From the NCBI GenBank assembly GCA_016935525.1, contig JAFGQU010000013.1, forward strand, positions 90,523 through 154,522: a stretch of 64,000 nucleotides of DNA. Direction: 5' to 3'. Under the pieces are notes generated by a model. The model was not told the origin of the DNA and did not search any database. It worked only from the letters and a program-made list of their open reading frames with translations. Source of the DNA: Candidatus Omnitrophota bacterium. Its GTDB lineage: Bacteria > Omnitrophota > Gorgyraeia > Duberdicusellales > 4484-171. Both the position numbers and the translations under genes were made by a program. This document shows, piece after piece, positions 5,231 to 21,053 of this stretch (positions are counted from its first letter, which is position 1; the number at the start of each line of letters is the position of its first letter).

Positions 5231-5238
5231 AACCAAAG

Positions 5239-5331
5239 TCACAAGGTCACATAGTCACATGTCACACGTTGAAACCAGATTCAGGGGGAAATATTCTTTT
5301 ACGTGTGACTATGTGTCGTGTGACGTGTGAC
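5239..5331. repeat. GTCACA-array inverted repeat (long imperfect hairpin) between rodA and the radical SAM gene
   Basis: Left arm: gtcacaaggtcacatagtcacatgtcacacgt. Right arm: acgtgtgactatgtgtcgtgtgacgtgtgac. Arms are about 30 nt with a loop of about 30 nt. Confidence 0.8.
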
Positions 5332-5342
5332 TTTCGTAAATT

Positions 5343-6983
5343 ATGGATTGGGCTCAATTTCAAAAACCTCAACGGTATATAGGTAATGAATGGAACGCAG
5401 TCTCTAAACCTCATGACGGCAGGCTGAAAATCTGTCTATGTTTTCCGGACCTGTATGAGGTGGGGATGAGTAATCTGGGGTTAAGGATCATTTACGGCCT
5501 GATCAATGAATATGAATCGGCGGTATGCGAACGGGTATTCCTGCCGGCTCCCGATCTAGCCGGATATCTTACACAGACCGGGACCAAGCTGTTTTCTTTG
5601 GAAAGTAAGGCCGCTTTGGATACGTTCGATGTAGTAGGTTTCCATTTAGGATGTGAATTGAATTTTACTAATTTTCTGGCTGTATTAGAACTTGCCGGTA
5701 TCCCTTTTGAACCTTCTCGGCGTCGTGATATCATCGTGATGGCCGGAGGATTGGTCAATCCTGAGCCAATCGCGCCTTTTGTCGATGTGTTTTTTTTAGG
5801 CGAGTTTGAAGCAAAAGCCGAGGAGTTTATGGAAGTGTTGAAACGCTATAAAGGCCGTGAGGCACGTTTAGAGGCGTTTGCTCATATCGAAGGGTTTTAT
5901 GTGCCGGCTTATTATGAGGTCGCGACGGGAGAGGGAGGGGCCCGTTTGGTACCGAAAACCCCTAGTGTGCAATTTCCGCTTAAAAAAGTGCATGTAAAAG
6001 ATCTGAATACTTCTTATTATCCTACCCGCTGGCTTACTCCTTATACTCAGATCGTGCATGATCGGGCACCGATTGAGATCGCTCGGGGATGTCCCCACCA
6101 CTGTTATTTTTGTCAGGCCCGGTGTGTATATTTCCCTTATCGTGAAAAAAAAACGGAATACGTGTTAACCCAGATGGAAGAGATATACGCATCAAGCGGT
6201 TATGAGAATCTTTCTTTATTGGCTCTTTCAGCATCGCATCACTCTCAAATAGAAGAGATCATCGACGGGGCCGGGAAATTATTTAAGGAAAAGCGGGTAG
6301 GGATCGCGCTCCCTTCATTACGGGTCGATGATATCGTCGGCCGGTTATATCCCCGCCTGGCGGCATTGAAAAAAGTTTCGCTCACTCTTGCCGTTGAAGC
6401 CGCGACCGTCGAGTTACGGGAAAAAATCAACAAACATATTGATGTCGACGCGGTCTTTGAAGCCAGAGATGTGTTACGGTCGCTGCGTCTGCGCACTATC
6501 AAGCTCTATTTTATGTTCGGGTTACCCGGGGAGACTGATGAGGATGTGGTCGCGATCGCTCAGATGATCCGTAGCTTTCAGAGGGCGTTAGGGGTAAAAG
6601 TGAACGCGAGTATCAACATCTTTATCCCTAAACCTTTTTCCCGGTTCCAGGATGTCGCTATGGATAGCCCCGAAAACTTGAGGCGTAAACGGCAGTTGAT
6701 CCAAAAAGAGTTGGGTTCGTTTCCTTTACGACGGTACCATATTTCATTTTCGACCCAGGAACGCAGTTTCCTGGAAGCGGTCCTTTCCCGGGCCGGGAGA
6801 GAGATCGCTCCGGTGATCTTCCGGGCGTTTGTCGCGGGAGCGCGGTCCGATTCCTGTGAGGAGACCTTTCGTTGGGATATCTGGGAGGAGGCGTTCCGAG
6901 ATGAAAAAATAGATTTCCGGCAGTATACCACATCGGTACATCCGCGGTTCAATCCTCACTATACCGCGGGAGGAGCCGTATGA
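5343..6983 (+). CDS. B12-binding-domain radical SAM protein (TIGR03960-like)
   Basis: 546 aa. CPHHCYFCQARC supplies a CxxxCxxC radical SAM cluster motif. The N-terminal region is consistent with a cobalamin-binding-like domain. It is followed by its usual partner, the DUF2344 protein. Confidence 0.75.
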   Translation: MDWAQFQKPQRYIGNEWNAVSKPHDGRLKICLCFPDLYEVGMSNLGLRIIYGLINEYESAVCERVFLPAPDLAGYLTQTGTKLFSLESKAALDTFDVVGFHLGCELNFTNFLAVLELAGIPFEPSRRRDIIVMAGGLVNPEPIAPFVDVFFLGEFEAKAEEFMEVLKRYKGREARLEAFAHIEGFYVPAYYEVATGEGGARLVPKTPSVQFPLKKVHVKDLNTSYYPTRWLTPYTQIVHDRAPIEIARGCPHHCYFCQARCVYFPYREKKTEYVLTQMEEIYASSGYENLSLLALSASHHSQIEEIIDGAGKLFKEKRVGIALPSLRVDDIVGRLYPRLAALKKVSLTLAVEAATVELREKINKHIDVDAVFEARDVLRSLRLRTIKLYFMFGLPGETDEDVVAIAQMIRSFQRALGVKVNASINIFIPKPFSRFQDVAMDSPENLRRKRQLIQKELGSFPLRRYHISFSTQERSFLEAVLSRAGREIAPVIFRAFVAGARSDSCEETFRWDIWEEAFRDEKIDFRQYTTSVHPRFNPHYTAGGAV

Positions 6984-7264
6984 ACACATTGAAGGTGACT
7001 ATCCAGAAAAGCGGGTTAATGCGTTATTATTCTCAACTCGACCTGGTACGCATTCTTGAACGAGCGGCCCGACGGACAGACCTTCCTTTTGCCTTCACGC
7101 AAGGATTTACTCCGCGCCTTAAAATAAGTTTCCATAACGGCCTCAAACTGGGAGTGGAAGGAGATATCCTGGCCACTTTTTATTTTCATGAAGAGACCTC
7201 TTTTGTGCGGTTAGAGGAAAACCTCTTACCGCAATTGCCGCACGGACTCATCCTTAAACCATAG
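6980..7264 (+). CDS. radical SAM-associated DUF2344 (TIGR03936-like) protein
   Basis: 94 aa. It overlaps the upstream radical SAM gene by 4 nt. This small protein is commonly encoded with, or fused to, TIGR03960 radical SAM enzymes. Confidence 0.55.
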   Translation: MNTLKVTIQKSGLMRYYSQLDLVRILERAARRTDLPFAFTQGFTPRLKISFHNGLKLGVEGDILATFYFHEETSFVRLEENLLPQLPHGLILKP

Positions 7265-7327
7265 GCTTTGAAAAAACCGGATTGTAAAGTGAAGGAATCA
7301 AAGTTGACGTATCATCCGACCTTGATC

Positions 7328-7690
7328 TCAACGGATAAGATAACGAGCGGTCATTTTTTTCGCTTTAAAGAATTTACGGGTGAATTCCTTGGCGAGTTCC
7401 TTATTGTATTTCTTGCAGGAAAAGATATTGATGTATGCCGACCGCCAGAGGTCTGAGAAATGGCCGGTGATAGATGAGGTTTCGATCAGCTGGACTAACG
7501 AATAACCTGCGGTGACCGGGTTCTTTTCGCCGAAGTAAGGTAATAGAGTCTTGCCGTACTTCTTCATTTTGATCTTTTTGCATAACAGGTCGACATATTT
7601 CTGTAATTGTTTTTTCGAGGTGATGATGCTCTTGTCGCATTCAAAAAGATTCAATACCAGTTCGTACCCAAAAGGAGCTCGTTTCTTCAT
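7328..7690 (-). CDS. speH: S-adenosylmethionine decarboxylase proenzyme, pyruvoyl-dependent (class 1, SpeH/SpeD-like)
   Basis: 120 aa. The pattern YELVLNLFECD ... LVQLIETSSITGHF ... AYINIFSCKK matches AdoMetDC: GxELxxCD, the ES/SH self-cleavage site, and the FSCG-like C-terminal region. The gene is on the minus strand. Confidence 0.65.
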   Translation of the reverse strand: MKKRAPFGYELVLNLFECDKSIITSKKQLQKYVDLLCKKIKMKKYGKTLLPYFGEKNPVTAGYSLVQLIETSSITGHFSDLWRSAYINIFSCKKYNKELAKEFTRKFFKAKKMTARYLIR

Positions 7691-8052
7691 GTTACCCCCT
7701 TTCTAGCGTACCTGTTTCCATTACGCTGAAATGTGGTTGTGCGGGTTGTGATACCGCGCTTTTAAAAATAAACTACTACTTTCTCCCGGGAAAAATACTG
7801 AAGAAAAATAACTGGTTTTTTTTGTGTGTAGGGAAATTTTTTTTATCTGGGAAGGAAAATCACGAATCAGAACGCGCCACAGTGTTTCTGTAACACGTAG
7901 GTCAGAACAATTGACGCTATTGTTAATGGAACAATTTGCGTTTTTGGTACAAAAGTTTTTTTTCATTCCCTCTGATCTGGTCTTGCATAAAATTCGTAAT
8001 TTTCTATATAATAAACCAAAATTAAAAATTTAGCAAGAGAAAAATTAAATTT

Positions 8053-8080
8053 TTGTCGATCTCCATATCTTTGATATAAT
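8053..8080 (+). promoter_or_regulatory. candidate sigma70 promoter (TTGTCG-16nt-TATAAT) for the ykgJ-like/GH5 genes
   Basis: TATAAT at 8075-8080 with a weak -35 at 8053-8058, about 40 nt upstream of the ATG at 8121. Confidence 0.35.
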
Positions 8081-8120
8081 AGCCTTTGTCTGGAAAGGAT
8101 CCTTTGGTAAGGACTCAATA

Positions 8121-8420
8121 ATGGATACTCAAGAAAAGTATACTCAATATCTCGAGAAGAAAGAACAGGAATGGGAAAACCGGTGTATTCGTTGCGGAGC
8201 CTGTTGCGGGGCGTATGAGGACCCTTGCGAGCATTTGCGTAAGGACGAACAGGGGTATTATTGTCCGATCTATAAAGACCGTTTCGGCCTGCGTAAGACC
8301 GTCAACGGCGAGGAGTTCTACTGCGTCCCGGTGAAAGAGATCCTTTCGGAATCCTGGCCGGGTTCATATCGCTGTGCCTATAAAAAGAAAGCACATTATT
8401 ATGCCAGATCACGTAAATGA
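8121..8420 (+). CDS. YkgJ-family (UPF0153) Cys-rich putative Zn/Fe-binding protein
   Basis: 99 aa with a CIRCGACCG (CxxCGxCC) signature and further Cys residues (CEH, CPIY, CVP). Confidence 0.55.
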   Translation: MDTQEKYTQYLEKKEQEWENRCIRCGACCGAYEDPCEHLRKDEQGYYCPIYKDRFGLRKTVNGEEFYCVPVKEILSESWPGSYRCAYKKKAHYYARSRK

Positions 8421-9735
8421 AGCCCCATCCGGGCTTCCCGAACATATCGGGATCCCGCTGGATAAACATGTTGGGGTGAGGGAAAAGCCCGGGGTTCCTT
8501 TGGGGCGGAATCCTCGCCACCTCCATCCACGGCCTGAAGGCCGTGGTTTTAAGCGGCGGGATAGATGGCCTTTCCGGTTACGCGGAGTCAATCTGGGAGG
8601 ATGGCTGTTAATGGAGGGATATCTTTTGGCGGGGAGGAATATTGCCGTAAAAGAGATAAAATCCCAGTTTAAAAAGCAATATGGGCCACAGGAGTTAGAG
8701 AAATTCGAGAAAGCGTTTCGTACGAATTTTATTACCGAGGACGATTTTAAGACTATCAGCCGATGGGGAGCTAATTGTATCCGGGTACCGTTTCATTACC
8801 GTCTTTTAGAAAAAGGCCCGTTCCGTCAGAATACACAGGGGATACGGTTATTGGGAAAAGTCCTGGATTGGGCTGGAAATCACGGATTAAAAGTCATTCT
8901 TGACCTTCATGCCGCGCCCGGGGCGCAGAATCACGATTGGCACGCGGATTCGACCGGTGAAGCCCTGTTTTGGCAGGACGTATCGCTGCGGGAAAGATGT
9001 CTTGAGATATGGGAGTGTATCGTTGATCAGCTGAAAGATAAACCGGCCCTTTACGGGTATGATGTATTGAACGAACCGGTCCTGGATAAAAGGGAGATAC
9101 CTCAATTGACCCGGTTTTATTCCCGGCTCATCCGGAGTATAAAAAGTATCGATAAAGATCATACTATTTTCCTGGAAGGTAATCTCTGGGCGACCCAGAT
9201 CGATTTTTTGAAAGATCTGATTGCCGAAAGAGTCGCGATCAGTATCCATTCCTATGTTCCCCTGGATTACAGTTTTCAATTCATACCGTATTTGAGGTAT
9301 CCGGGTACAATCGGTTCCGAGAAATGGGATAAAAAGAAAATATTTAAATGTCTTCAAGGGTACCATGCTTTCGCTCAAAAGAACAAAGTCGACATATTCG
9401 TGGGTGAATTCGGCGTGAATTGGCGCGGCGGTCATTACGGTGAAGGCCGGTATCTTAAAGATATCCTTGACGCGTTTGAGCAGTATAAGTTCCATTATAC
9501 GTATTGGACGTATAAAGCGATAAAGACTTATACGTTTCCCGATGGGATAGTCCAATATCTGCCTAATCCTCCAAGTGTATGCCGCCAGGGCCCGGTTTCG
9601 GGGATGGAAACGTACATTACCCTGTGGGGGAAAAAGAAAAACGATATTATTAATACTTGGAAGACGAAAAACTATACCGTCAATGAAGGGGTACTTGAGG
9701 TCTTACAGACTTATTTCCAAAGGAATAAAAAATGA
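8401..9735 (+). CDS. glycoside hydrolase family 5 (cellulase-like) protein
   Basis: GVNLGGWLLMEGY, the NEP acid/base motif (DVLNEP) and the GEFG nucleophile motif (VGEFGV) are all present. Start taken at ATG 8401; a GTG further downstream is also possible. No signal peptide was seen. Confidence 0.7.
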   Translation: MPDHVNEAPSGLPEHIGIPLDKHVGVREKPGVPLGRNPRHLHPRPEGRGFKRRDRWPFRLRGVNLGGWLLMEGYLLAGRNIAVKEIKSQFKKQYGPQELEKFEKAFRTNFITEDDFKTISRWGANCIRVPFHYRLLEKGPFRQNTQGIRLLGKVLDWAGNHGLKVILDLHAAPGAQNHDWHADSTGEALFWQDVSLRERCLEIWECIVDQLKDKPALYGYDVLNEPVLDKREIPQLTRFYSRLIRSIKSIDKDHTIFLEGNLWATQIDFLKDLIAERVAISIHSYVPLDYSFQFIPYLRYPGTIGSEKWDKKKIFKCLQGYHAFAQKNKVDIFVGEFGVNWRGGHYGEGRYLKDILDAFEQYKFHYTYWTYKAIKTYTFPDGIVQYLPNPPSVCRQGPVSGMETYITLWGKKKNDIINTWKTKNYTVNEGVLEVLQTYFQRNKK

Positions 9736-10367
9736 AAGTCGTTCCGGCACTTTTGACTGATAATAAAGATGAATTCCTGAAAATGATCGATATCTGCCGG
9801 GGATTCACCGATTACGTGCAGGTGGATATCATGGACGGAGAATTCGTGCCGTCGGCAAGTATCACACTCGATGAGTTAACCCAATGCCGGTCTTCGATAG
9901 GAAGTGAGGCCCATTTGATGGTCGAGGACCCTATCCGGTGGATTGTGCCGTTTAAACAGTTTGGTGCCGACCGTATTATCTTTCATCATGAGATGAAAAG
10001 GAAAAACCATGCTGAGGTTATCGAGAAGATCCGCGAGAATGGGTTAAGCGCGGGGCTTGCCGTCAATCCCTCGACCCCAATAGACGATTTTAAAGGCCTT
10101 ATTCCCGATCTCGATATGGTGTTATTTATGAGTGTCATCCCCGGTTTTTACGGCAGTCAGTTTATCCCCGAGGTACTCGATAAGATCCGTACATTCAAAT
10201 CCCTGTTTCCTCAAACCATAGCCGCGATCGACGGGGGCGTCAAGTTAGATAATGCCAAGGAGATCATCCGGTCAGGTGTGGATTATCTTTGTGTGGGCAG
10301 CGCGTTATTAAAAGCGGACCCGCCTCAGGACGCCTACCGCCAGTTCAGGGAATTAACTCATGGGTAA
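9732..10367 (+). CDS. rpe: ribulose-phosphate 3-epimerase family protein
   Basis: 211 aa TIM barrel. The motifs VDIMDG, HLMVEDP, FHHE, GLAVNPSTP and AIDGG match Rpe-type metal-binding and phosphate-binding residues. Confidence 0.7.
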   Translation: MKVVPALLTDNKDEFLKMIDICRGFTDYVQVDIMDGEFVPSASITLDELTQCRSSIGSEAHLMVEDPIRWIVPFKQFGADRIIFHHEMKRKNHAEVIEKIRENGLSAGLAVNPSTPIDDFKGLIPDLDMVLFMSVIPGFYGSQFIPEVLDKIRTFKSLFPQTIAAIDGGVKLDNAKEIIRSGVDYLCVGSALLKADPPQDAYRQFRELTHG

Positions 10368-11175
10368 AGTCGCTAAGATATCACTTATCATCGGGTTTAT
10401 TATCATCGCGGCGCTTGTGTTGTACACTTCTTTCCGTACGACAAAAGACGCCATCGGTAACGCGCCGACACTTGCCGTTATCCCGGATGCCGCGTCGGGA
10501 TATCCTCGGCCTTATTGCGCGTTGATCTTTGATGATCTTGGCACAAGTATCGAAGAAATAAAATCTCTGTATGATCTGGATATTCCCCTTACGATCTCGG
10601 TGTTTCCGGAAGAGCGGTTTTCTAAGAACGTAGCGTATATCGGACAACGGTGCGGGTTTAGCGTGCTTATTCATCTGCCGTTAGAACCAAAAACCGAGAT
10701 AGAAAGCTACAGAAAAGTAAAAAAAGATTTTATCGGGACTCATCACGGCCGTCAGGGAAACGAACGGTTACTGCGGAAATACCTGAATTCGATACGTATC
10801 GCGATGGGAGTAAATAATCATATGGGTTCAAAAGCGACCGAAAACCCTAAAATAATGAGGTTAGTGTTAAGCCATATGAAACGGGACAACCTGGTGTTTG
10901 TCGATAGCCTGACTTCTCTCGATTCGATAGCCTGCGAAGTCGCCGCGCAGGTCGGTGTGCGCTGCCGCCGAAACGACGGATTTCTTGACGCGGTCGATGA
11001 TACGGAAGTGATTAAAGAGAAAATAGTGAAACTCATCGCGCTTGCCCGGGAAAAGGGGAAAATAATCGTCATCGCGCATCCTCGTGCGAATACCCTGACC
11101 GTATTAGAAGAACTCATGCCGGCCTTAAAAGAACAGTTACAGTTCGTTACCCTTAAAGATTATCTGGAATTATGA
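10360..11175 (+). CDS. divergent polysaccharide deacetylase (YibQ/DUF610 family), N-terminal TM anchor
   Basis: 271 aa. ALIFDDLG, IHLPLEP and GVNNHMGS are characteristic of the YibQ-like divergent polysaccharide deacetylase family. Confidence 0.7.
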   Translation: MGKVAKISLIIGFIIIAALVLYTSFRTTKDAIGNAPTLAVIPDAASGYPRPYCALIFDDLGTSIEEIKSLYDLDIPLTISVFPEERFSKNVAYIGQRCGFSVLIHLPLEPKTEIESYRKVKKDFIGTHHGRQGNERLLRKYLNSIRIAMGVNNHMGSKATENPKIMRLVLSHMKRDNLVFVDSLTSLDSIACEVAAQVGVRCRRNDGFLDAVDDTEVIKEKIVKLIALAREKGKIIVIAHPRANTLTVLEELMPALKEQLQFVTLKDYLEL

Positions 11176-11747
11176 AAAAAGTGTTACTGCATATATGCTG
11201 TGGTGTATGTGCCGCGGGTGCGGCGCACCGTCTGCACGAAGAAGGATTCGGTGTGGCCGGATTTTATTTTAACCCGAATATCCATCCCCGGGATGAATAC
11301 GAAAAACGTAAAGAAAACCTGAAACATATCCGGGCCGCGTTTGATATTGAGGTGATCGAAGGCGAATACGCTCCGCGAAAATGGTTTGATGTGTGCCGGG
11401 GATTTGCTGATGAGCCGGAACGAGGCACACGTTGCCAGCTCTGTTATCGTCTGCGGCTTCAGGAGACGTACCGGGTGAGTAAAGAAAAAAAGTTCGACTA
11501 TTTTACGACTACCCTTACGATAAGCCCGCATAAAGAAAGCAGTGTTGTTTTTGAAATAGCAAAATCCGTCGGCGGGGAAGCATTTTTGCCTGTCGATTTT
11601 AAAAAGAAAGACGGATTCAAAATAGCAAATCAGTTCGCCAAAGAACATGATCTTTACCGGCAGGATTATTGCGGGTGCGTATATAGTCTTTTAAAACGAA
11701 GGAGTCACATAGTCATCCCGTGGAATTCGCAGAATTCCCGGGACTGA
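11172..11747 (+). CDS. queH: epoxyqueuosine reductase QueH (DUF208)
   Basis: 191 aa. LLHICCGVCAAG, the conserved Cys residues (CQLCY ... CGC) and an overall architecture match QueH. Confidence 0.8.
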   Translation: MKKVLLHICCGVCAAGAAHRLHEEGFGVAGFYFNPNIHPRDEYEKRKENLKHIRAAFDIEVIEGEYAPRKWFDVCRGFADEPERGTRCQLCYRLRLQETYRVSKEKKFDYFTTTLTISPHKESSVVFEIAKSVGGEAFLPVDFKKKDGFKIANQFAKEHDLYRQDYCGCVYSLLKRRSHIVIPWNSQNSRD

Positions 11748-11753
11748 ATCCCC

Positions 11754-11776
11754 GAAATTTATCAGTGATAAATTTC
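11754..11776. promoter_or_regulatory. perfect 23-bp palindrome GAAATTTATCAgTGATAAATTTC
   Basis: 11-bp perfect arms around a central g, immediately 3' of queH. A 7-bp-arm palindrome ggaattcGCAgaattcc also lies at 11722-11738 inside the queH 3' end. Confidence 0.7.
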
Positions 11777-11786
11777 AAGGGGTAAG

Positions 11787-11946
11787 GTCACATAGTCACA
11801 ATGTATAGGTCGCATAGACACATAGTCACAAGGTCACACGTGAAGGAAACAGGGGTTTTTCATGTGACATGTGACGTGCAACGTGTGACAAAACTGCTGT
11901 GCAGATTTTCGTGTGACGTGTGTCGTGTGACGTGTGTCGTGTGACC
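11787..11946. repeat. GTCACA / TGTGAC degenerate repeat arrays arranged as an inverted repeat
   Basis: The left part reads gtcacatagtcaca ... gtcacaaggtcacacgtg. The right part reads catgtgacatgtgacgtg ... cgtgtgacgtgtgtcgtgtgacgtgtgtcgtgtgacc. It is the same family as 5239-5331. Confidence 0.8.
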
Positions 11947-12861
11947 ATGCGTTATTATTCATACAATCGGTATTTGCGGGAGAAGTTCGGCGAAAGGGTG
12001 CATCGGATAAGCCTTGATGCCGGGTTTAGTTGCCCTAATATCGACGGTACTTTGAGCGATACCGGGTGTATTTACTGTAATAACTCCGCGTTCAGCCATT
12101 TCACAAAGGAGAAAAAGGATATCCGTACCCAGATCAAAGAATCGATCCGGTTTTATGGACAGAAGATGAACGTAAAGAGATTTATCGCCTATTTCCAGGC
12201 GTTCTCCAGTACCTATGCCGATATTGATAGATTAAAGGAAACATATGATATCATCAAAGAGTTTCCCCAGATCGTGGGGCTGTCGATATCTACCCGGCCG
12301 GATTGTGTTGATGAAGAAAAGATAGCGATGATTGCCGATTATGCCAAAGAGTATCTGGTCTGGATGGAATACGGCCTCCAGACTACGCACAACCGGATGT
12401 TGGAGATGATCAACCGTAAACACAGTTACGAAGACTTTTTAAGCGCTTTTACGATTACAAAAAAATATGATATTTCTGTGGGGGTGCATATGATCATCGG
12501 CCTTCCCGGACACACAAGAGCCGATATGCTCGGCGATGCCGAACGTATCGCGAGTGTAGGGGTAGACGGTATAAAATTCCATGTACTTCATGTCTTAAAG
12601 AATACGGCGCTGGAGAAATGGTATCAGGAAGGGGAAGTATCGTTACTTACCAGAGATGCGTATGTCGGTATGGTATGTGATTATGTAGAGAGGTTACCGA
12701 AAGAGACAGTGATTTTAAGATTGGTTTCGACCGCAGATAAAGAATGTCTTATCGCTCCCGATTGGATCAATGACCGTACATCAGTCATGAACGCTATCAA
12801 TGAAGAGCTTGACCGAAGAGGAAGCTATCAGGGAGCGAAATGCGTAACGCGTAACGCGTAA
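11947..12861 (+). CDS. TIGR01212-family radical SAM protein (YhcC-like)
   Basis: SCPNIDGTLSDTGCIYC is a Cx9-ish CxxC variant typical of the TIGR01212 family. It has an elongator/HemN-like fold. Start chosen at ATG 11947, just after the repeat. Confidence 0.7.
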   Translation: MRYYSYNRYLREKFGERVHRISLDAGFSCPNIDGTLSDTGCIYCNNSAFSHFTKEKKDIRTQIKESIRFYGQKMNVKRFIAYFQAFSSTYADIDRLKETYDIIKEFPQIVGLSISTRPDCVDEEKIAMIADYAKEYLVWMEYGLQTTHNRMLEMINRKHSYEDFLSAFTITKKYDISVGVHMIIGLPGHTRADMLGDAERIASVGVDGIKFHVLHVLKNTALEKWYQEGEVSLLTRDAYVGMVCDYVERLPKETVILRLVSTADKECLIAPDWINDRTSVMNAINEELDRRGSYQGAKCVTRNA

Positions 12862-12876
12862 CGTGTCATGCGTTTA
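12842..12876. repeat. cgtaacgcg tandem repeat, left flank of dtd
   Basis: gcgtaacgcgtaacgcgtaacgtgtcatgcgtt overlaps the last codons of the TIGR01212 gene. Confidence 0.7.
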
Positions 12877-13002
12877 AAATGATAATGATCAATGCAAATT
12901 TAGCAGTTAACAATTAGCAATGTAACACAGGGTATCCTTATTGTATTTATTCTCTTCATTGTTAAATGATAATTGCTAATTGAGAATTGATAATTTTCGT
13001 AT

Positions 13003-13443
13003 ATGAAAGTTTTAGTGATACGAGTCCATAGAGGAGAATTGAAGGCCGAAGGGAAAGTTTTTTCCACGATCGGTCCGGGGATCTCGGTATTTGTGGGATT
13101 AGAAAAAGAAGATACCCGGGAAGGCCTTATTACGATGGCGGAAAAAGTAGTTGCGTTAAGGATCTTTGAAGATGAGCGCGGTAAAATGAATTTTTCGGTA
13201 AAGGACAAAAAGTATGATATCCTGTGTATTCCCAATTTTACGTTATGCGCCGATACCGAAGGCGGCCGCCGGCCGTCTTTTGATAACGCGATGAAGCCCC
13301 AAGGAGCAAAAAACATGTATGATGAGTTTGTGGAATTACTCAAATCGTATACAATAGAGGTAAAGACCGGAATATTCGGCGCGCATATGGATATTCAGTT
13401 AGATCTGGACGGCCCGGTCAACATCATTTTGCAGGCAAAATGA
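13003..13443 (+). CDS. dtd: D-aminoacyl-tRNA deacylase
   Basis: 146 aa. MKVLVIRV ... GPGISVFVGL ... GKMNFSV ... ILCIPNFTL ... RPSF ... GIFGAHMDIQLDLDGPV matches Dtd along its full length, including the SQFTL-like and GP motifs. Confidence 0.85.
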   Translation: MKVLVIRVHRGELKAEGKVFSTIGPGISVFVGLEKEDTREGLITMAEKVVALRIFEDERGKMNFSVKDKKYDILCIPNFTLCADTEGGRRPSFDNAMKPQGAKNMYDEFVELLKSYTIEVKTGIFGAHMDIQLDLDGPVNIILQAK

Positions 13444-13445
13444 TG

Positions 13446-13516
13446 TCGTAACGCGTAATGCGTTCTGCGTAAGATAGAGAGCAAAATTCGCGTTACGCGT
13501 GTCGCGTTTCGCGGTA
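13446..13516. repeat. cgtaacgcg inverted repeat, right flank of dtd
   Basis: cgtaacgcgtaatgcgttctgcgt ... cgcgttacgcgtgtcgcgtttcgcgg. Same motif family as 12842-12876. Confidence 0.7.
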
Positions 13517-13518
13517 CG

Positions 13519-14283
13519 GTGAAAACTATGTGTCCGATATTATTTAACATAGGTTTATTTACGATATACACTTACGGGGTATTGGTGTTTATGGGGGTAA
13601 TGGCCGGATACCTTTTCGCGATGCGTGAGGCGAAAAGGTGCCGGTTAGATACCAAGCTTTTTTCCGATATCTTGTTCTGGTCGATCATCGGCGCGTTTAT
13701 CGGCGCTCGGGTTTTATATCTGATAGTCGAATGGGACATGTTTCTCGAAGAACCGGCCGCGATGCTTCTGGGCCGGGCCGGATTTGTATTTTACGGGGGA
13801 GTGATCGGGGGATTAGCGGTGTTATATCTCCTTACCCGAAAATATCGGGTAAATTTTCTGGAACATGTAGATATCATCGCGTTGACTATTCCGTTAGGCC
13901 ATTTCTTCGGCCGGTTAGGATGTTTTTTTTACGGCTGTTGTTACGGCCGGCATACCGATTCCTGGATCGGGATCGAGTTTCCGCATGGTTCGCCGGCCGG
14001 GATGATCGGCGGGAAAGTCATTCCGACTCAATTGATCTCCGCCTTTTTCCTGCTGATGATCTTTTTTCTCCTGCTTTTTATCCGCCGCCGTCAGCGGTTC
14101 CAAGGGCAGATTTTGCTTTCTTATTTCATCCTTTACGGGATATTCCGGTTTATTATCGAATTCTTCCGCGGCGACCCGCGGGGATTTTGGGGGATCTTTT
14201 CTACCTCACAGGTCATAGCTCTTCTTTTAATCATCTCCGGTATCATCGGATGGAGCCGTTTAGCGCGGCCCTCTCGGCGTTGA
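13519..14283 (+). CDS. lgt: prolipoprotein diacylglyceryl transferase
   Basis: 254 aa polytopic membrane protein. The Lgt signature region is GHFFGRLGCFFYGCCYG, and the overall Lgt-like helix pattern and conserved H/R/Y residues are present. Confidence 0.85.
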   Translation: MKTMCPILFNIGLFTIYTYGVLVFMGVMAGYLFAMREAKRCRLDTKLFSDILFWSIIGAFIGARVLYLIVEWDMFLEEPAAMLLGRAGFVFYGGVIGGLAVLYLLTRKYRVNFLEHVDIIALTIPLGHFFGRLGCFFYGCCYGRHTDSWIGIEFPHGSPAGMIGGKVIPTQLISAFFLLMIFFLLLFIRRRQRFQGQILLSYFILYGIFRFIIEFFRGDPRGFWGIFSTSQVIALLLIISGIIGWSRLARPSRR

Positions 14284-14347
14284 TATATCAGAAAAACCCT
14301 TGCAAATCAAAAAAATATTTATTAATATAAAATGAAAAATTTATATA

Positions 14348-14382
14348 GGGATTGCGGTGATTATAGCGGGATTGCGGCGATT
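14348..14382. repeat. direct repeat gggattgcgg(t/c)gatt x2 (GATT-N5-GATT motif) in the nspC promoter region
   Basis: Two 15-nt copies separated by 5 nt, ending 16 nt before the nspC start. Confidence 0.7.
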
Positions 14383-14397
14383 TTTTAAAGGTTAATT

Positions 14398-15501
14398 ATG
14401 AAGTTAAAAACACCCTATTATTTGATTGACGAGAAAAAACTGTTAAAAAACCTTAAGATCATCAAATATATCCGTGATTACTGCGGGGCAAAGTCAGTTC
14501 TGGCCCTCAAATGTTTCTCAACTTGGGGTGTTTTTAAACTGATGAAGAAATATATGGATGGGACTACAGCCAGTTCACCGTATGAGGCCCGTTTAGGATA
14601 TGAGAAATTCGGCAAGGAAGTTCATGCCTATTCAGTCGGCTACTCAAAGGAGGACATAAAGGAAGTCGGCAAGATCGCCGACACGGTTATTTTTAACTCG
14701 GTATCGCAGTTAAAAACTTTTTATTCTTCTGTCCGTACCTGTAAGGTGGGGCTACGAATAAATCCTCGAGTAAGTTATTCCCACTTTGATCTTGCTGATC
14801 CGGCCCGGAGATATTCACGATTAGGGGTGGTAGATAAAAACTCTCTTTCAAAAGTGATGCATTTGATCAGCGGGGTCATGTTTCACTTTAACTGTGAGAA
14901 CGATGATCTCAAAACATTTTCCAAACATCTGGATTACATCACTGAACAATATGAGAGTATTCTTAAACGGTTAGAATGGGTAAGCCTTGGCGGAGGGCTC
15001 TATTTTACGAAAGCAGACTATCCGGTCAAAAAGTTCTGCAGGAAATTGAAAGAATTCAGCGATCGATTTAAACTGCAAATCTATTTAGAGCCGGGGGAAA
15101 GTGCGATTACTCAGTCAGCCGAGCTGGTAACGACGGTGCTTGATATTGTTAAGAATCAGATCGATATCGCTATTGTCGACGCTTCAACTGAGGCCCATAT
15201 GCTTGATCTTTTGATCTATCGTAGCCAGGCGAAAATAAGAGAGGCAGGAGGCGGTAAATACCGATATATGATCGCCGGGAGGTCCTGTTTAGCCGGTGAT
15301 ATTTTCGGGACATATCGGTTTCCCTCGAAGTTAAAAACAGGCAGTATTATCAGGTTTTCCGATGCTGCGGGATATACGATGGTAAAGAAAAATTGGTTTA
15401 ACGGTTTAAAAATGCCGGCAATTGTGGTAAAAAGATTGAATGGAAAGATTGATGTGGTCCGTAAGTTCGAGTATAAAGATTTCATGACGAATCTATCTTA
15501 A
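14398..15501 (+). CDS. nspC: carboxynorspermidine/carboxyspermidine decarboxylase
   Basis: 367 aa. The N-terminus TPYYLIDEKKLLKNLKIIKYIRDYCGAKSVLALKCF is characteristic of CANSDC (PLP-dependent, alanine racemase fold). It is paired with a CANSDH gene downstream. Confidence 0.85.
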   Translation: MKLKTPYYLIDEKKLLKNLKIIKYIRDYCGAKSVLALKCFSTWGVFKLMKKYMDGTTASSPYEARLGYEKFGKEVHAYSVGYSKEDIKEVGKIADTVIFNSVSQLKTFYSSVRTCKVGLRINPRVSYSHFDLADPARRYSRLGVVDKNSLSKVMHLISGVMFHFNCENDDLKTFSKHLDYITEQYESILKRLEWVSLGGGLYFTKADYPVKKFCRKLKEFSDRFKLQIYLEPGESAITQSAELVTTVLDIVKNQIDIAIVDASTEAHMLDLLIYRSQAKIREAGGGKYRYMIAGRSCLAGDIFGTYRFPSKLKTGSIIRFSDAAGYTMVKKNWFNGLKMPAIVVKRLNGKIDVVRKFEYKDFMTNLS

Positions 15502-15520
15502 GAAGAAAAGGGGGGTAGCT

Positions 15521-16789
15521 ATGAGAAAAAACGTGTTGATCGTCGGAGCCGGAGGGGTTGCTCATGTGGCTGCCCATAAATGCGTGCAAAACAATGACGT
15601 GCTGGGCGATATCTGTATCGCATCGCGGACGCAAAGTAAATGTGATAAGATCATCGAAAGCGTAAAAAAGAAAAAAAGCCTGAAAGATCCCTCAAAAAAG
15701 ATATATTCCCGTCAGATCAACGCATTGGATATCCCCGCTACGGTAAAGCTTATCCGGGATACCGGTTCACAGATCGTGATCAACCTTGCTCAGGCTTATG
15801 TGAATATGTCGTTACTCGAAGCCTGTATGAAAAGCGGGGCTGCCTATATAGATACCGCGATACATGAAGAACCGCATAAAGTCTGTGAAGATCCGCCTTG
15901 GTACGGTAATTATGAATGGAAACGTAAAGATAAATGTAAAGAAACCGGTACTACCGCTATTTTAGGAGCCGGGTTCGATCCCGGGGTAGTCAACGCCTAC
16001 GCGGCGCTTGCGGTGAAACATCATTTCGATACGATCGATACGATCGATATCCTGGATGTAAACGCCGGTAATCACGGCAGATATTTTTCGACGAATTTCG
16101 ACCCGGAAATAAATTTCCGCGAATTCAAAAAAGTATGGACCTGGATCGACCGCAGATGGGTGATGGAGAAAGTCCATTCGATAAAGATGATCTATGATTT
16201 CCCGGTCGTCGGTGAACAACCGGTCTATTTGAACGGCCATGACGAACTCCATTCGTTATCGAAAAATATCGACGCCAATACTATCCGGTTCTGGATGGGG
16301 TTCAGCGATCATTATATCAATGTGTTCACGGTCCTGACTAAACTTGGGCTGACTTCAGAAAAACCGGTCCGGACCGCCGAAGGAGTCGAAGTCGTACCGT
16401 TAAAGGTATTGAAAGCGATCCTGCCCGATCCCTTATCGCTTGCGCCTGACTATACCGGAAAGACCTGTATCGGAGATTACGTGCGCGGCGAGAAGAACGG
16501 AGAAAAAAGGGAGATATTTATTTATAATACCTGCGATCACGCGGAGTGTTATAAAAAAGTAGAGTCCCAGGCAATCTGTTATACTGCCGGAGTACCGCCG
16601 GTTGCCGCCGCGATGCTTATTGCCAAAGATATCTGGGACGTAAGGACGATGGTGAATGTCGAAGAACTCGATCCCGATCCTTTTATCGAGTTGCTTGATA
16701 AAATAGGGTTACCAACTCAAATCGATGAAAGTCCGAAACCTCTACCGTCACAGGTAGCCGATCATCTGAAAGGGGTGGAATCAATATAA
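15521..16789 (+). CDS. carboxynorspermidine synthase/dehydrogenase (saccharopine dehydrogenase family)
   Basis: 422 aa with an N-terminal Rossmann motif VLIVGAGGVAHVAA. It has the length and layout of CANSDH and is a neighbour of nspC. Confidence 0.8.
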   Translation: MRKNVLIVGAGGVAHVAAHKCVQNNDVLGDICIASRTQSKCDKIIESVKKKKSLKDPSKKIYSRQINALDIPATVKLIRDTGSQIVINLAQAYVNMSLLEACMKSGAAYIDTAIHEEPHKVCEDPPWYGNYEWKRKDKCKETGTTAILGAGFDPGVVNAYAALAVKHHFDTIDTIDILDVNAGNHGRYFSTNFDPEINFREFKKVWTWIDRRWVMEKVHSIKMIYDFPVVGEQPVYLNGHDELHSLSKNIDANTIRFWMGFSDHYINVFTVLTKLGLTSEKPVRTAEGVEVVPLKVLKAILPDPLSLAPDYTGKTCIGDYVRGEKNGEKREIFIYNTCDHAECYKKVESQAICYTAGVPPVAAAMLIAKDIWDVRTMVNVEELDPDPFIELLDKIGLPTQIDESPKPLPSQVADHLKGVESI

Positions 16790-16791
16790 AA

Positions 16792-16823
16792 GTCACACGA
16801 CACAAAGTCACATAGTCACACGT
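16792..16823. repeat. GTCACA degenerate tandem repeat
   Basis: agtcacacgacacaaagtcacatagtcacacgt lies immediately 3' of the CANSDH stop. Confidence 0.75.
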
Positions 16824-16880
16824 TGTCTCGAAAGATATTAGAGATGATCACTGTGTATAATCTTCAATCAAATTCAGAAT

Positions 16881-16946
16881 AATCACCGTAATCGATGCCG
16901 CAGGCGTAATCACTGTAATCAGGGGCTATTGTACCCCGCAATAGCT
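16881..16946. repeat. AATCACCGTAATC-type repeats plus a hairpin
   Basis: aatcaccgtaatc ... gtaatcactgtaatc is the reverse orientation of the GATT-N5-GATT motif at 14348. The hairpin gctattgtaccccgcaatagc follows. Confidence 0.65.
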
Positions 16947-17095
16947 TCAAATGTGTAAAATTTTCCGAATCTGTAAAATATCCTGACACTTTTTGTGCCT
17001 GTTCTCATATCTGAAAGAATAGGTTTAAGAAATTTTTCCCTCAAAAACCTAAGTTTTAAAAAGGATATTAAATCCTACAGTTTTGGTAGTAATTT

Positions 17096-17116
17096 TTCCG
17101 GCATAAAAATTGCTTA
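17096..17116 (+). promoter_or_regulatory. candidate sigma54 (-24/-12) promoter
   Basis: The sequence cCGGCATaaaaaTTGCTt gives GG at 17100-17101 and GC at 17112-17113 with exactly 10 nt between them. GGCA and TTGCT match the TGGCAC-N5-TTGCW consensus. It lies about 150 nt upstream of the PEP-CTERM gene. The palindromes AGGATattaaATCCT (about 17063), CTTACAtttgagTGTAAG (17113-17130) and GGAAAATTTTCC (about 17130-17141) are nearby. Confidence 0.45.
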
Positions 17117-17261
17117 CATTTGAGTGTAAGGAAAATTTTCCTCATCATTTTTCCCTGCCCGGGATCGATTTCCGAAGAATAGTCTAAGAGAGATGCCTAA
17201 AGAAAAGAGCAAGGGCTTTTTCTTAACGGTGAGGGTCTATATCCATCAGGAGAGGTGGAAG

Positions 17262-18413
17262 ATGAGAAAAGTAGTATTTGGAGTTCTATTTATTTTATTG
17301 TGTTTGGGCATTAATATTGATGTTTTCGCGTTACCCTCATTTAAGATCACCCAGCTTACGGATAATGCAGGATATTTTGATCATGGCCCCTGGATATCGG
17401 GTGATGATGTGGTATGGAAGAGAAGACAAGGAGAAGAGGGGAGTTATCTCTATGAATTATTTTTTTATGACGGTAGCTCTATAATACAATTGGCAGATGT
17501 TTCTACTCATGATTTTGATGCAAGAACTCTAGAAGGTAAGGTCGTCTGGCGAGATTGGGATAGTACCATGCATGATACTGAAATATTTCTTTATGATGGG
17601 ATTATGACTACTCAGATCACCGATAATTCAAATTTTGATATAGATGTTGATATTTCTGGAGACAAAATAGTATGGGAAGGTATTGTTGCTGGGGAGTCGG
17701 AAATATTTTACTATGATGGCTTAACTATTTCACGATTAACAACTAATAGCGTTGACGATGAGTTTCCGAGAATATCCGGAGATACTATTGTATGGTCTCA
17801 TTATGACGGGAATGATTATGAAGTCATTTTTCGTGAAGGTGCCTCTCAGGTTCAACTAACGAATAACAACTACGATGATGAATACGCAGAAATATCCGGG
17901 GACAATATTGTCTGGCATGGCGATGATGGGAATGATCTTGAGATATTTTTATATGATGGGGCAATTACTACGCAACTGACTGATAACGATTATCTTGATT
18001 ATTGGCCGAAAATAGACGGCAATAATGTGGTCTGGCATGGATTTGACGGAAATGATAACGAAATCTTTTATTATGACGGTTCTATTCTTCAGCAGTTGAC
18101 TGACAACGATTATGATGATTGGTATCCTCAGGTTTTTGGAAACAATATCGTCTGGTACGGGTTTGACGGAAATGATAATGAGATCTTTTTTTACGACGGT
18201 ACCGGTATAGTCCAGGTTACCGATAATATCTATGATGACCGGAGTGCCCGCTTATCAGGTATGAATCTTGTATGGTCGGGCTATGATGGAAACGATTATG
18301 AGATATTCCTGGCCAGTCCGGTCCCGGAACCGGCATCGGTTCTGTTATTAGGAGTAGGGTTCATTGGTTTAGGTGCTCATCGCTATCTACGCCGTTTCTT
18401 CAGGATAGATTAA
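17262..18413 (+). CDS. PEP-CTERM sorting-domain protein with eight ~41-aa tandem repeats (putative beta-propeller)
   Basis: A strong RBS AGGAGAGGTGG precedes ATG 17262, followed by a signal peptide. The unit TQLTDNxYDDxxPxISGxNIVWxGxDGNDxEIFxYDG repeats eight times. The C-terminus is PVPEPASVLLLGVGFIGLGAHRYLRRF, i.e. PEP motif, TM helix and RR, the exosortase sorting signal. Confidence 0.8.
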   Translation: MRKVVFGVLFILLCLGINIDVFALPSFKITQLTDNAGYFDHGPWISGDDVVWKRRQGEEGSYLYELFFYDGSSIIQLADVSTHDFDARTLEGKVVWRDWDSTMHDTEIFLYDGIMTTQITDNSNFDIDVDISGDKIVWEGIVAGESEIFYYDGLTISRLTTNSVDDEFPRISGDTIVWSHYDGNDYEVIFREGASQVQLTNNNYDDEYAEISGDNIVWHGDDGNDLEIFLYDGAITTQLTDNDYLDYWPKIDGNNVVWHGFDGNDNEIFYYDGSILQQLTDNDYDDWYPQVFGNNIVWYGFDGNDNEIFFYDGTGIVQVTDNIYDDRSARLSGMNLVWSGYDGNDYEIFLASPVPEPASVLLLGVGFIGLGAHRYLRRFFRID

Positions 18414-18437
18414 TAGCAGTTACCCCGTTCACGCGTT

Positions 18438-18456
18438 GCTTCACCGGAGGTGAAGC
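18438..18456 (+). terminator. stem-loop GCTTCACC-gga-GGTGAAGC followed by CCCGTT/AACGGG repeat hairpins
   Basis: Perfect 8-bp stem located 25 nt after the PEP-CTERM stop. There is no adjacent U-tract, although a T5 run lies about 20 nt downstream. Further cccgttc / aacggg inverted repeats extend to about 18530. Confidence 0.4.
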
Positions 18457-18540
18457 TTCCCGTTCACCCGTTCTTTTTAACGGGCATAACGGGGGGAACG
18501 GGCTAACGGGTTAACCGGACTATTCTTACCGCTATTTTAT

Positions 18541-18566
18541 GTGTGACCTTGTGACTTTGTGACCTT
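18541..18566. repeat. TGTGAC tandem repeat (reverse orientation of the GTCACA family)
   Basis: gtgtgaccttgtgactttgtgacc. Confidence 0.75.
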
Positions 18567-18570
18567 CATA

Positions 18571-18613
18571 TCTGCGATCATCTGGGGTTTTTCCTTCTGT
18601 GATCATCTGCGTG
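18571..18613. repeat. TGTGATCATCTG-type repeat pair
   Basis: tctgcgatcatctg ... ctgtgatcatctgcgtg. The same motif recurs at 21844-21882. Confidence 0.65.
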
Positions 18614-18619
18614 AAAGTA

Positions 18620-18648
18620 TTGACAAGCCGGGGATATGTCCTATAATA
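18620..18648 (+). promoter_or_regulatory. sigma70 promoter (TTGACA-17nt-TATAAT) of the regulator/PAPS operon
   Basis: Consensus TTGACA at 18620-18625 and consensus TATAAT at 18643-18648 with a 17-nt spacer. The MarR-like gene ATG is at 18656. Confidence 0.7.
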
Positions 18649-18655
18649 TTGTTCA

Positions 18656-19069
18656 ATGTTTGAACAATCTCCGGATAAAAAGAACAATGGTGCTGCCGAA
18701 TTAGAACGGGAAGAGATACTCAATCTCCTCTCCGAACTCCATAAAACCCCGGACATCACCCAACGGGAGATGTCTTTGCGGCTGGATGTCTCCTTGGGGA
18801 AAGTCAATTATCTTCTTAACGCCCTTATTAAAAGGGGACTTTTAAGTATCAAAAATTTCTCGAAAAACGAAGGTAAAGTAAAACTCAAACGGGTCAAATA
18901 TAACCTTACGAAAAAAGGGTTTCAGGAGAAACTCAAACTTACCTACCACTTTCTCAAGAAAAAAGAAAAAGAATTCAACCGGTTATGTGAAGAATGGGAA
19001 GACCTGAAAAATCTTTCCGAAACCCTGCAGAAAGCCGGGATCGAGTTGGAAGGGGGGAGCAAACGATGA
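18656..19069 (+). CDS. small winged-helix transcriptional regulator, MarR-like (EPS-associated type)
   Basis: 137 aa. The central region [30 protein letters not shown] reads as HTH then wing. The size and layout resemble the MarR-family regulators that accompany PEP-CTERM/EPS loci. Its stop overlaps the start of sat/cysC. Confidence 0.55.
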
Positions 19070-20958: not shown

Positions 20959-21018
20959 TCGTGAAGGAATGGCCGTAAAATAGATGGAAATACAGTCGCA
21001 ATACGATAGAAATGCATG

Positions 21019-21053
21019 GAAATACAATTGTATTTCAACGTATTTCGCGAAAT
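21019..21053. promoter_or_regulatory. two adjacent perfect palindromes upstream of the second APS kinase gene
   Basis: GAAATACAATTGTATTTC is an 18-bp perfect palindrome at 21019-21036. ATTTCGCGAAAT is a 12-bp perfect palindrome at 21042-21053. Both are embedded in a gaaatac-rich region spanning 20960-21098. Confidence 0.6.

Follow-up and report, generated by a model that had tools for sequence, protein, structure and literature searches.

Arrays of 7-8-nucleotide repeats, often paired into predicted hairpins, in the intergenic spacers of an Omnitrophota genome

Introduction

To our knowledge, no function has been established for heptanucleotide arrays since their first description in cyanobacteria, where STRR comprises several heptamer families. 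Here we analyse tandem arrays of the hexamer GTCACA and of its complement TGTGAC, repeated every 7-8 nt, in a stretch of 64,000 nucleotides from a Candidatus Omnitrophota bacterium (assembly GCA_016935525.1, contig JAFGQU010000013.1, positions 90,523 to 154,522 of the forward strand), called the window below. Such arrays occur at four sites, numbered 1 to 4. At sites 1 and 2 they are inverted pairs predicted to fold into long hairpins, and the site 1 hairpin is conserved in a relative well beyond the synonymous-site level. Our preferred reading, in which belief and doubt weigh about equally, is that these are slippage-grown 7-8-nt arrays past stop codons that would serve as transcribed RNA hairpins, either intercistronic or in the 3' untranslated region (3' UTR).

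The closest described systems are arrays of other heptamers. In Xanthomonas, GGGAATC arrays are 89-93% intergenic and lie on average 28 nt from the upstream open reading frame (ORF), sometimes over its stop codon; the arrays are mostly transcribed, vary among related species and favour co-oriented genes, and 70-75 convergent inverted pairs are found per genome (PMC4692102). Their function is unknown, and the unit has been read as a G-quadruplex former (Rehm et al. 2015, PMC4692102). Nostoc carries arrays of GGGGA(C/T)T, and paired inverted arrays are reported to be rare there (PMC4692102). The cyanobacterial heptamer repeats have been suggested to act in regulation close to start codons or promoters, which is not established (10.1101/2022.06.06.494920). 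Finally, TAACTGA repeats are present in marine Beggiatoaceae, cyanobacteria and Bacteroidetes in 2-6 copies, almost all of them intergenic (MacGregor 2015, PMC4679880); the Guaymas genome holds 169 direct sets and 1 inverted set, and their commonest position is 1 nt from the start codon (PMC4679880). In the literature we found neither the GTCACA unit nor arrays of this kind from Omnitrophota described.

Results

GTCACA arrays at four sites

The window contains 31 GTCACA/TGTGAC hexamers, compared to 13.4 ± 3.9 expected from 100 dinucleotide-preserving shuffles of the window, none of which reached 31. Moreover, 25 of the 31 fall in four clusters totalling ~310 nt. A preliminary description of this DNA had placed these clusters correctly to ±1 nt, and both the count and the clustering confirm that the intergenic repeat family it proposed is real. 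It had also given a spacing of 7-8 nt for the GTCACA units; Tandem Repeats Finder (TRF) returned a period of 7-8 at every one of the four sites, which are the following:

5232-5337, + strand: site 1, a hairpin that fills the spacer between rodA and a radical SAM gene of the TIGR03960 type (identified by its fold, by TRF and by comparison with the relative L482).
11787-11953, + strand: site 2, a compound array hairpin (identified by its fold, by TRF and by stem geometry).
16792-16820, + strand: site 3, a one-armed GTCACA/GACACA array that begins 2 nt past the stop codon of CANSDH, a saccharopine-dehydrogenase family gene.
18541-18566, + strand: site 4, a one-armed TGTGAC array of 3 units, between a CCCGTT/AACGGG hairpin and a strong sigma-70 promoter.

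At site 1 the 5' arm (5238-5266) carries GTCACA at 5238, 5246, 5254 and 5261, spaced by 8, 8 and 7 nt, and the 3' arm (5301-5331) carries TGTGAC at 5304, 5319 and 5326 with a degenerate TGTGTC at 5312; the loop region of ~35 nt has small helices of its own. The first base of the stem lies 1 nt past the rodA stop codon and the last one 5 nt before the next ATG. The predicted fold has an energy of -44.4 kcal/mol (z -5.2), and the opposite strand folds about equally well. Note that L481, an independent short-read assembly of the same species that is 100% identical to the window, ends inside the 3' arm of site 1, its position 1 being window position 5302; hence, the arrays appear to break short-read assemblies.

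Site 2 is larger. Its 5' array (11787-11838) is made of 8-nt units, with GTCACA at 11787, 11795, 11825 and 11833 and degenerate GTCGCA and GACACA between them, and TGTGAC stands at 11863, 11870, 11884, 11912, 11926 and 11940. An inner 3' array (11861-11890) consists of 7-nt units, and in an outer one (11909-11945) TRF finds 2.6 perfect copies of a 14-nt unit, which therefore look like a recent duplication of two units. The fold of 11775-11955 reaches -71.7 kcal/mol (z -4.65), and its outer stem (11800-11953) takes in the ATG at 11947. In this lineage 5' arms are built of 8-nt units and 3' arms of 7-nt units.

The two remaining sites have a single arm each, with GTCACA at 16792, 16807 and 16815 and GACACA at 16800 (site 3), and TGTGAC at 18542, 18550 and 18558 (site 4). 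Locally they fold no better than shuffled sequence (z +0.5 and -0.35, respectively). Thus the paired arrays with ~30-bp stems of the preliminary description are found at sites 1 and 2, where arms of ~30 nt or more fold, and not at sites 3 and 4. Its statement that U-tracts are absent applies to all four: a consensus scan gives nothing terminator-like at these sites, and none has the short GC-rich stem and U-tract of an intrinsic terminator, the tails reading TTTCGTAAAT, CATGCG, GTTGTCTCG and CTTCATATC. A search of positions 4500-19500 against Rfam 15 gave only sub-threshold, chance-level matches, and the one overlapping an array (SSRC8_2) scored 15 bits against a gathering score of 72.

Conservation and turnover of the hairpins in relatives

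Relatives were obtained via protein homologues, and the orthologous spacers were then compared. The named homologues of the window proteins are all from Candidatus Omnitrophota, and a metagenome scan with the radical SAM protein gave relatives all at 48% identity or less. In addition to L481, we used the following:

L482: a relative with 76% identity in its TIGR03960 radical SAM protein; L488 is a contig from the same sample.
L483 and L486: a 61% relative, fully syntenic between mreB and sat/cysC, both from the metagenome-assembled genome GCA_964483625.1, which is also the source of L024 and L059.
L485: a 58% relative.
L489: a compact relative with 34% GC.

The spacer between rodA and the radical SAM gene of L482 holds the same GTCACA hairpin as site 1, with identities of 79% for the entire spacer and 76% for its non-repetitive loop, compared to 44% at the fourfold-degenerate sites of the adjacent gene (173 sites) and 61-65% in ordinary spacers of these two genomes. 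Against the synonymous-site rate, the loop alone gives p = 2e-5. Judged from this alignment of one element with one relative, the site 1 element is under purifying selection. A candidate promoter in the site 1 loop (TTGAAA-17-TATTCT, 9/12) was dropped since it is not conserved in L482.

In other comparisons the unit changes at the same junction. Two further window features are needed here:

13447-13513, + strand: hairpins of CGTAACG/CGCGTTA heptamer arrays in the dtd to lgt spacer, from 3 nt past the stop codon (z -2.05).
18414-18534, + strand: a hairpin of CCCGTT/AACGGG octamer arrays that starts 0 nt past the stop codon of the PEP-CTERM gene.

In L483 the junction between rodA and the radical SAM gene also carries a hairpin, with the units GGACGA/TCGTCC instead of GTCACA, and the dtd to lgt spacer carries, in the same place as in the window, a 7-nt-periodic hairpin with the drifted units CGTCGCG. 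Hairpins thus persist at the same junctions while their unit sequence changes. The position after CANSDH shows three units in three genomes, GTCACA in the window, GGGTGCN in L488 and AACGGGN in L486. The AACGGG hairpin after the PEP-CTERM gene is common to the window and L486, and the L486 counterpart of site 4 is a single TGTGAC unit. The idea that the PEP-CTERM gene was inserted into a single hairpin, of which sites 3 and 4 would be the two arms, was rejected, that gene being syntenic in L486 and L488.

Site 2 differs again. It separates queH from a radical SAM gene of the TIGR01212 type (rSAM2), and these two genes overlap in the three syntenic relatives L483, L485 and L489, where the site 2 element is absent; in L489 queH, rSAM2, dtd and lgt all overlap or abut. 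Given the overlap in three relatives, the 199-nt site 2 element was gained in this lineage within an ancestral operon and marks no operon boundary. Two smaller features lie next to it:

11750-11782, + strand: a small A/U-rich hairpin, 2 nt past the queH stop codon and upstream of the array hairpin, seen in the minimum-free-energy structure.
11704-11716, + strand: decayed GTCACA units GTCACAtaGTCAtc, which code for part of the C-terminal tail of QueH.

At the place in L483 that matches 11704, four intact GTCACA units encode the last 11 QueH residues, and the queH stop codon and the next start codon both lie in the 'CACGTGA' that closes this array. Right after the decayed units, the last queH codons of the window contain a near-perfect palindrome, CCCGTGGAATTCGCAGAATTCCCGGG (11717-11742).

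These comparisons bear on the main rival to the preferred reading, namely that most arrays are tolerated mutational by-products and only some, like site 1, are secondarily constrained. In its full form, this explanation takes the arrays for neutral or selfish debris of slippage and of hairpin-templated (quasi-palindrome) copying between the arms, tolerated and functionless; we consider it possible and, on balance, doubtful. The turnover of unit identity at orthologous positions fits it well, as do the perfect 14-nt duplication, the spilling of arrays into coding tails and the gain of 199 nt between genes that overlap in relatives. The identity of site 1, in its loop as in the whole spacer, over the fourfold-degenerate level (p = 2e-5 for the loop) is against it, and so are the hairpins kept at their junctions despite the change of unit, the bias of arrays towards the stop codon and the tight fit of the stems between stop and start. 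One-armed arrays and array-free lineages again fit a by-product: L489 has only A/T-rich low-complexity runs, and L119 and L120, which belong to related lineages, are also without arrays (the array load per 10 kb is 6.0 in the first 23 kb of the window and 3.3-3.7 in L483/L486). Passages in two published reports, which name heptanucleotide repeats as the most over-represented long simple sequence repeats (SSRs) in many bacteria and propose polymerase slippage as the cause (PMC4679880, PMC4692102), also favour it.

Position relative to stop codons, promoters and transcription-unit ends

Across the loci, unpaired arrays lie nearer the upstream stop codon in 69 cases and nearer the downstream start codon in 34 (p = 7e-4). 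The arrays of the window begin 0-3 nt past stop codons or overlap them, and some encode C-terminal tails. In the other genomes paired elements also fill the spacer, leaving gaps of ~0-30 nt on each side. No significant avoidance of divergent spacers by paired elements was seen in a small sample with crude gene calls.

Of 29 hairpins, 23 have their more stable fold on the sense strand (sign test p = 0.002), among them 6/6 of the window hairpins tested. Mismatches within arrays cluster at particular unit phases (z ~18, 192 arrays), which fits a conserved core with a variable spacer; multi-unit duplication, such as that of the 14-mer at 11909-11945, can also cause phase clustering, and we therefore did not count it as evidence of selection. 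Indels are present inside 68 of 320 arrays, in which unit lengths of 7 and 8 are mixed.

The preliminary description placed the sites at four operon boundaries, at the 3' ends of transcription units. At site 1 the stem fills the stop-to-start spacer, and at site 2 the genes overlap in relatives, so that the statement applies to sites 3 and 4, which promoters follow. These two sites sit at transcription-unit ends, ahead of promoters, and lie upstream of and outside the promoter hexamers. Downstream of site 3, a sigma-54-like (-24/-12) motif, GGCAT-N5-TTGCT (17100-17114), precedes the PEP-CTERM gene and is conserved in L488 and L486. Downstream of site 4 there is a sigma-70 promoter, TTGACA-16-TATAAT (18620-18647, 12/12), and the whole block to 18655 is conserved in L486; since the promoter ends 8 nt before the ATG of a gene for a MarR-type helix-turn-helix (HTH) protein, a leaderless or nearly leaderless mRNA is implied. 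A further block, TGTGTAAAATTTTCCGAATCTGTAAAATA (16952-16980), lies upstream of the sigma-54-like motif and is kept in L488 and L486; it may possibly be an enhancer-binding-protein site. The genes downstream of sites 1 and 2 apparently lack a Shine-Dalgarno sequence beside the array.

The main suggestion of the preliminary description had been that the arrays are U-tract-independent transcription terminators marking operon ends, which we now think unlikely. The sites at real unit ends, 3 and 4, do lie just upstream of promoters, as this explanation would have it, but they are the ones without hairpins. The two strong hairpins fill their spacers and leave no room for a separate promoter, and site 2 separates genes that overlap in relatives; if termination at sites 1 or 2 were efficient, the downstream genes would be silenced. 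In addition, neither an array nor a significant fold is found in the convergent spacer at 7265-7327. What speaks for termination is the stop-side position, the long stable stems and the lack of an excess of canonical terminators, with 24 terminator-like sites in 20 kb against 21.2 ± 3.9 expected and none of them at a gene end.

Distribution of the GTCACA unit

A scan of one genome per species with the pattern (GTCACA-N1-2)x3 gave at least 116 stretches. Among the 116 matches listed, Omnitrophota account for 16, genomes labelled Planctomycetes for 11 and Acidobacteriota for 10, and many matches consist of a GTCACA array, a short loop and a TGTGAC array, directly past a stop codon. Omnitrophota of 38-69% GC carry GTCACA/TGTGAC hairpins, and so do genomes with the labels Planctomycetes, Acidobacteria, Verrucomicrobia (77% GC), Elusimicrobia, Gemmatimonadota and Alistipes, that is, under the labels of seven phyla and from 38 to 77% GC. 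Contrary to what had been supposed, the family is thus not genome-specific, the same hairpins being found in other Omnitrophota and in genomes labelled as six other groups. Note that GCA_964483625.1 (L483/L486, L024 and L059) is labelled 'uncultured Planctomycetia bacterium'. Between mreB and sat/cysC this genome is collinear with the window, whose closest homologues include its proteins. The label is probably wrong, and the apparent share of Planctomycetes among the GTCACA matches would then be inflated.

In the hairpin cases that were read, GTCACA is always the 5' arm, so that both strands would yield the same RNA arrangement. The hexamer core is constant, while the spacer bases between cores track genome GC. 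The same loci also hold many other 7-8-nt arrays, often as inverted pairs, which makes this a class of elements with frequent GTCAC-type units, not one genome-specific family.

The preliminary description compared the family to REP/BIME elements. A REP is one conserved imperfect palindrome of 20-40 nt with a defined head and a cognate RAYT transposase, and REPs can act as mRNA 3'-end stabilisers. Like the REP/BIME elements of enterobacteria and pseudomonads, the elements described here are multi-copy intergenic palindromes, often within operons, and the comparison remains useful as a working analogy for function. As a class assignment it was not supported. The stems are variable-copy tandem arrays of 7-8-nt units with no conserved 20-40-nt palindrome, copies share just the 6-nt unit, several unrelated units coexist, and orthologous positions hold different ones. 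We therefore regard movement by a RAYT transposase, or as MITE-like hairpins, as highly improbable. The intergenic, palindromic and multi-copy nature of the elements, their presence in both orientations and the apparent gain of site 2 agree with mobility, but there is no consensus palindrome, loops and lengths differ, and by eye we saw no conserved GTAG-type head and no target-site duplication at the site 2 junction. No transposase or RAYT gene was found among the 20 annotated genes around the sites.

The likeness to CRP/FNR half-sites that had also been noted did not hold: TGTGA-N6-TCACA has 0 matches in the window with up to one mismatch, and the arms stand in the opposite order, GTCACA...TGTGAC. 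This leads to the wider question of whether the arrays are double-stranded DNA sites for an oligomerising, sequence-specific protein, for instance one of the ribbon-helix-helix type, like omega of pSM19035, or a factor of the nucleoid or of segregation; such a protein would recognise the hexamer core. Omega of pSM19035 binds WATCACW heptads, to which the unit bears an apparent likeness. A GTCACA core kept from 38 to 77% GC while spacer bases vary, together with phase-clustered mismatches, is compatible with such a protein, and direct, inverted and one-armed arrays all occur; multi-unit duplication also gives phase clustering, however, and the indels in 68 of 320 arrays break the fixed phasing that such proteins need. 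The strict 7-bp phase at promoters of an omega-type operator is not seen here, 7- and 8-nt units being mixed and the arrays abutting stop codons, not promoters. Since several unrelated units occur within 20 kb and units differ at orthologous sites, we consider this explanation very unlikely.

Bare GTCACA arrays make up 84 stretches in viral contigs, no more than do the controls matched in composition (81, 113 and 77). Whether viral arrays have an inverted partner depends on the unit: 24/88 cases for GTCACA, 27/118 for GCTACA, 3/83 for ACACTG and 2/78 for GACTCA. At viral loci (L134, L143, L153 and L157; L358, L363 and L402), AT-rich spacers stand between TGTGAC/GTCACA and TGTAGC/GCTACA arrays as they do between iterons, which suggests replication origins or operators. 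Binding of a protein to DNA could be argued from these arrays; being iteron-like, they are a different object, and we did not use them as evidence on the bacterial elements.

Arrays of other units and gene context

The window contains, apart from the 4 GTCACA sites, at least 6 sites made of other units, all within its first 23 kb, where most of its intergenic DNA is; there, most genuine spacers of more than 40 nt carry a repeat-built array or hairpin. Besides the two hairpins already listed, these include:

12835-12873, + strand: an array of GCGTAAC heptamers across the stop codon (TAA) of the TIGR01212-type radical SAM gene, a codon that the array itself supplies.
12879-13000, + strand: a hairpin with TTAGCAA/ATTGCTAA-type arms, ending 2 nt before the dtd ATG (z -3.2).
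21005-21085, + strand: a GAAATAC/GTATTTC hairpin with a unit spacing of ~11 nt, in the spacer from sat/cysC to cysC (z -4.0).

The hairpins of other units have z scores of -2 to -4. TRF gives period 7-8 and 3-7 copies at the four sites and at 12835, 12958, 13447, 13487 and 18478. In L483 the TIGR01212-type radical SAM gene ends within a TGTGACG array, which gives TGA.

The gene calls of the preliminary description around the sites agree with Pfam. The genes are arranged in three blocks:

First block: mreB ... PBP2, rodA, site 1, radical SAM (TIGR03960 type) + DUF2344.
Second block: ... polysaccharide deacetylase, queH, site 2, rSAM2 (radical SAM, TIGR01212 type), dtd, lgt.
Third block: a carboxynorspermidine decarboxylase-like gene, CANSDH, site 3, PEP-CTERM, site 4, MarR-type HTH, sat/cysC.

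Beyond the first 23 kb no arrays are present, because + strand genes are tightly packed there with almost no spacer DNA. From 23168 to 55753 (~32 kb), + strand ORFs overlap or abut at their ends and spacer DNA is almost nil; this is probably a single very long gene cluster. In the syntenic region of L486 past sat/cysC, sugar-nucleotide epimerase/dehydratase genes come first.

Several other observations were made in the same region. The spacer from lgt to the decarboxylase gene contains a 15-nt direct repeat, GGGATTGCGG(T/C)GATT, in two copies 20 nt apart (14348-14382), and no 7-8-nt array. A small ORF of 99 aa (8121-8420), with homologues that have no Pfam match, is kept in position and sequence in L482, L483, L485 and L489, and a conserved extended -10 promoter (TTGTCG-16-TATAAT with TG upstream) lies before it at 8053-8080. 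The PEP-CTERM gene is made of 120-nt (40-residue) tandem repeats (17450-18310) in at least 6 copies with 60-73% nucleotide identity. Finally, two perfect coding repeats were found, AACGACG x3.1 in an inositol-monophosphatase-family gene (22406-22427) and TCGATACGA x2.7 in CANSDH (16026-16049), the latter present in L483/L486 as TCGATACCA x3.6.

Discussion

The anatomy of the elements, their positions, their predicted folds and their conservation and turnover between relatives lead us to propose that they are slippage-grown RNA hairpins. Replication slippage would add and remove units, at times two together, and local copying would carry a unit into neighbouring spacers, the arrays being retained chiefly where two arms can pair. 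We infer that the hairpin is transcribed within the mRNA of the upstream gene and acts there as an RNA structure, with possible effects on termination, stability and translational coupling. Inside operons (sites 1 and 2 and the rSAM2 to dtd and dtd to lgt spacers), it would be an intercistronic stem-loop that gives the upstream cistron a protected 3' end, and the stem would keep a long untranslated spacer base-paired and closed to Rho and nucleases. Where the downstream start codon lies at or inside the base of the stem, downstream translation would depend on the opening of the stem, by upstream translation or by processing. For sites 3 and 4, which are at true ends of transcription units, the arrays would belong to the 3' UTR, before the next promoter.

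Several points weigh against this proposal. Transcription of the elements and their 3' ends are assumed. The conservation figure comes from one element and one relative, and the 3' arm of site 1 in L482 carries three uncompensated core changes. Two of the four sites first described, 3 and 4, are one-armed and unfolded, and pairing is thus not the whole story. Paired elements stand in 21 tandem, 3 convergent and 4 divergent spacers against a background of 70/15/15%, a small sample with crude gene calls. The G·U excess on the sense strand (90 vs 70) has p = 0.13, fourfold-degenerate sites on that strand are already 58% G+T, and in L059 the antisense strand folds better than the sense one (-53 vs -36 kcal/mol); because of these three points, the strand asymmetry fits a role in RNA without establishing it. 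Finally, the GTCACA core recurs across phyla over a wide range of GC, and its constancy hints at sequence-specific recognition, beyond a purely structural model.

This last point can be taken further. The GUCACA/UGUGAC hairpin may be a functional RNA module across phyla, a 'zipper' of 6-bp helices stacked with 1-2-nt internal loops that would occupy precisely the interval from a stop codon to the next start, recognised by a conserved nuclease or RNA-binding protein or opened by the terminating ribosome. Operon gene order would then give coupled, tunable expression, and slippage in unit number would be a fast evolutionary dial. Such a module, if real, would explain the constant hexamer core from 38% to 77% GC, the tolerance of large insertions where ancestral genes overlapped and were coupled in translation, and why the downstream genes at sites 1 and 2 seem to have no Shine-Dalgarno sequence beside the array. 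We regard it as improbable.

The findings turn what was a vague repeat family into a testable hypothesis on operon-internal RNA structure in bacteria without canonical terminators. Our analysis adds a lineage, the Omnitrophota, in which arrays make up most of the spacer DNA and usually pair into stop-to-start hairpins. It adds comparative evidence as well, one hairpin appearing to be under purifying selection and others at the same junctions swapping their units, and evidence of hairpins inserted between genes that overlap in relatives. In practice, the arrays appear to break short-read assemblies, and they change where gene calls put the C-termini and start codons of the genes next to them.

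Among the known systems, the TAACTGA repeats share with the elements described here heptamer arrays that abut coding sequence and a patchy spread over phyla, which raises the same question of transfer versus convergence; in the Guaymas genome they are almost exclusively direct, start-proximal and dominated by one unit, whereas here inverted pairs are common and the bias is to the stop codon. With the cyanobacterial STRR they share intergenic tandem heptamers, several units per genome and lineage-specific unit sequences. STRR arrays, in contrast, are mainly one-directional, and no STRR unit equals GTCACA. The likeness to the Xanthomonas GGGAATC and Nostoc arrays lies in tandem 7-nt units, few to ~14 copies, a ~90% intergenic location, co-oriented genes and a distance of at most ~50 nt from the upstream stop codon or an overlap with it, and with Xanthomonas it extends to convergent array pairs able to form stem-loops and to variation between related species. 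Unlike the G-rich GGGAATC, GTCACA cannot form a quadruplex, and here, in another phylum, several unrelated units occur per genome, 7- and 8-nt units are mixed and stop-to-start spacers are filled. The traits of heptanucleotide long-SSR arrays that concern sequence and position are present: tandem 7-nt (5-11 nt) units in at least 3 copies; a mostly intergenic location near or overlapping the upstream stop codon; convergent inverted pairs (sites 1 and 2, 13447-13513 and 18414-18534); and length and sequence variation at the same loci (the window, L482, L483, L486 and L488). By these features of their sequence, the elements are a variant of the heptanucleotide long-SSR arrays of the STRR and Xanthomonas GGGAATC type.

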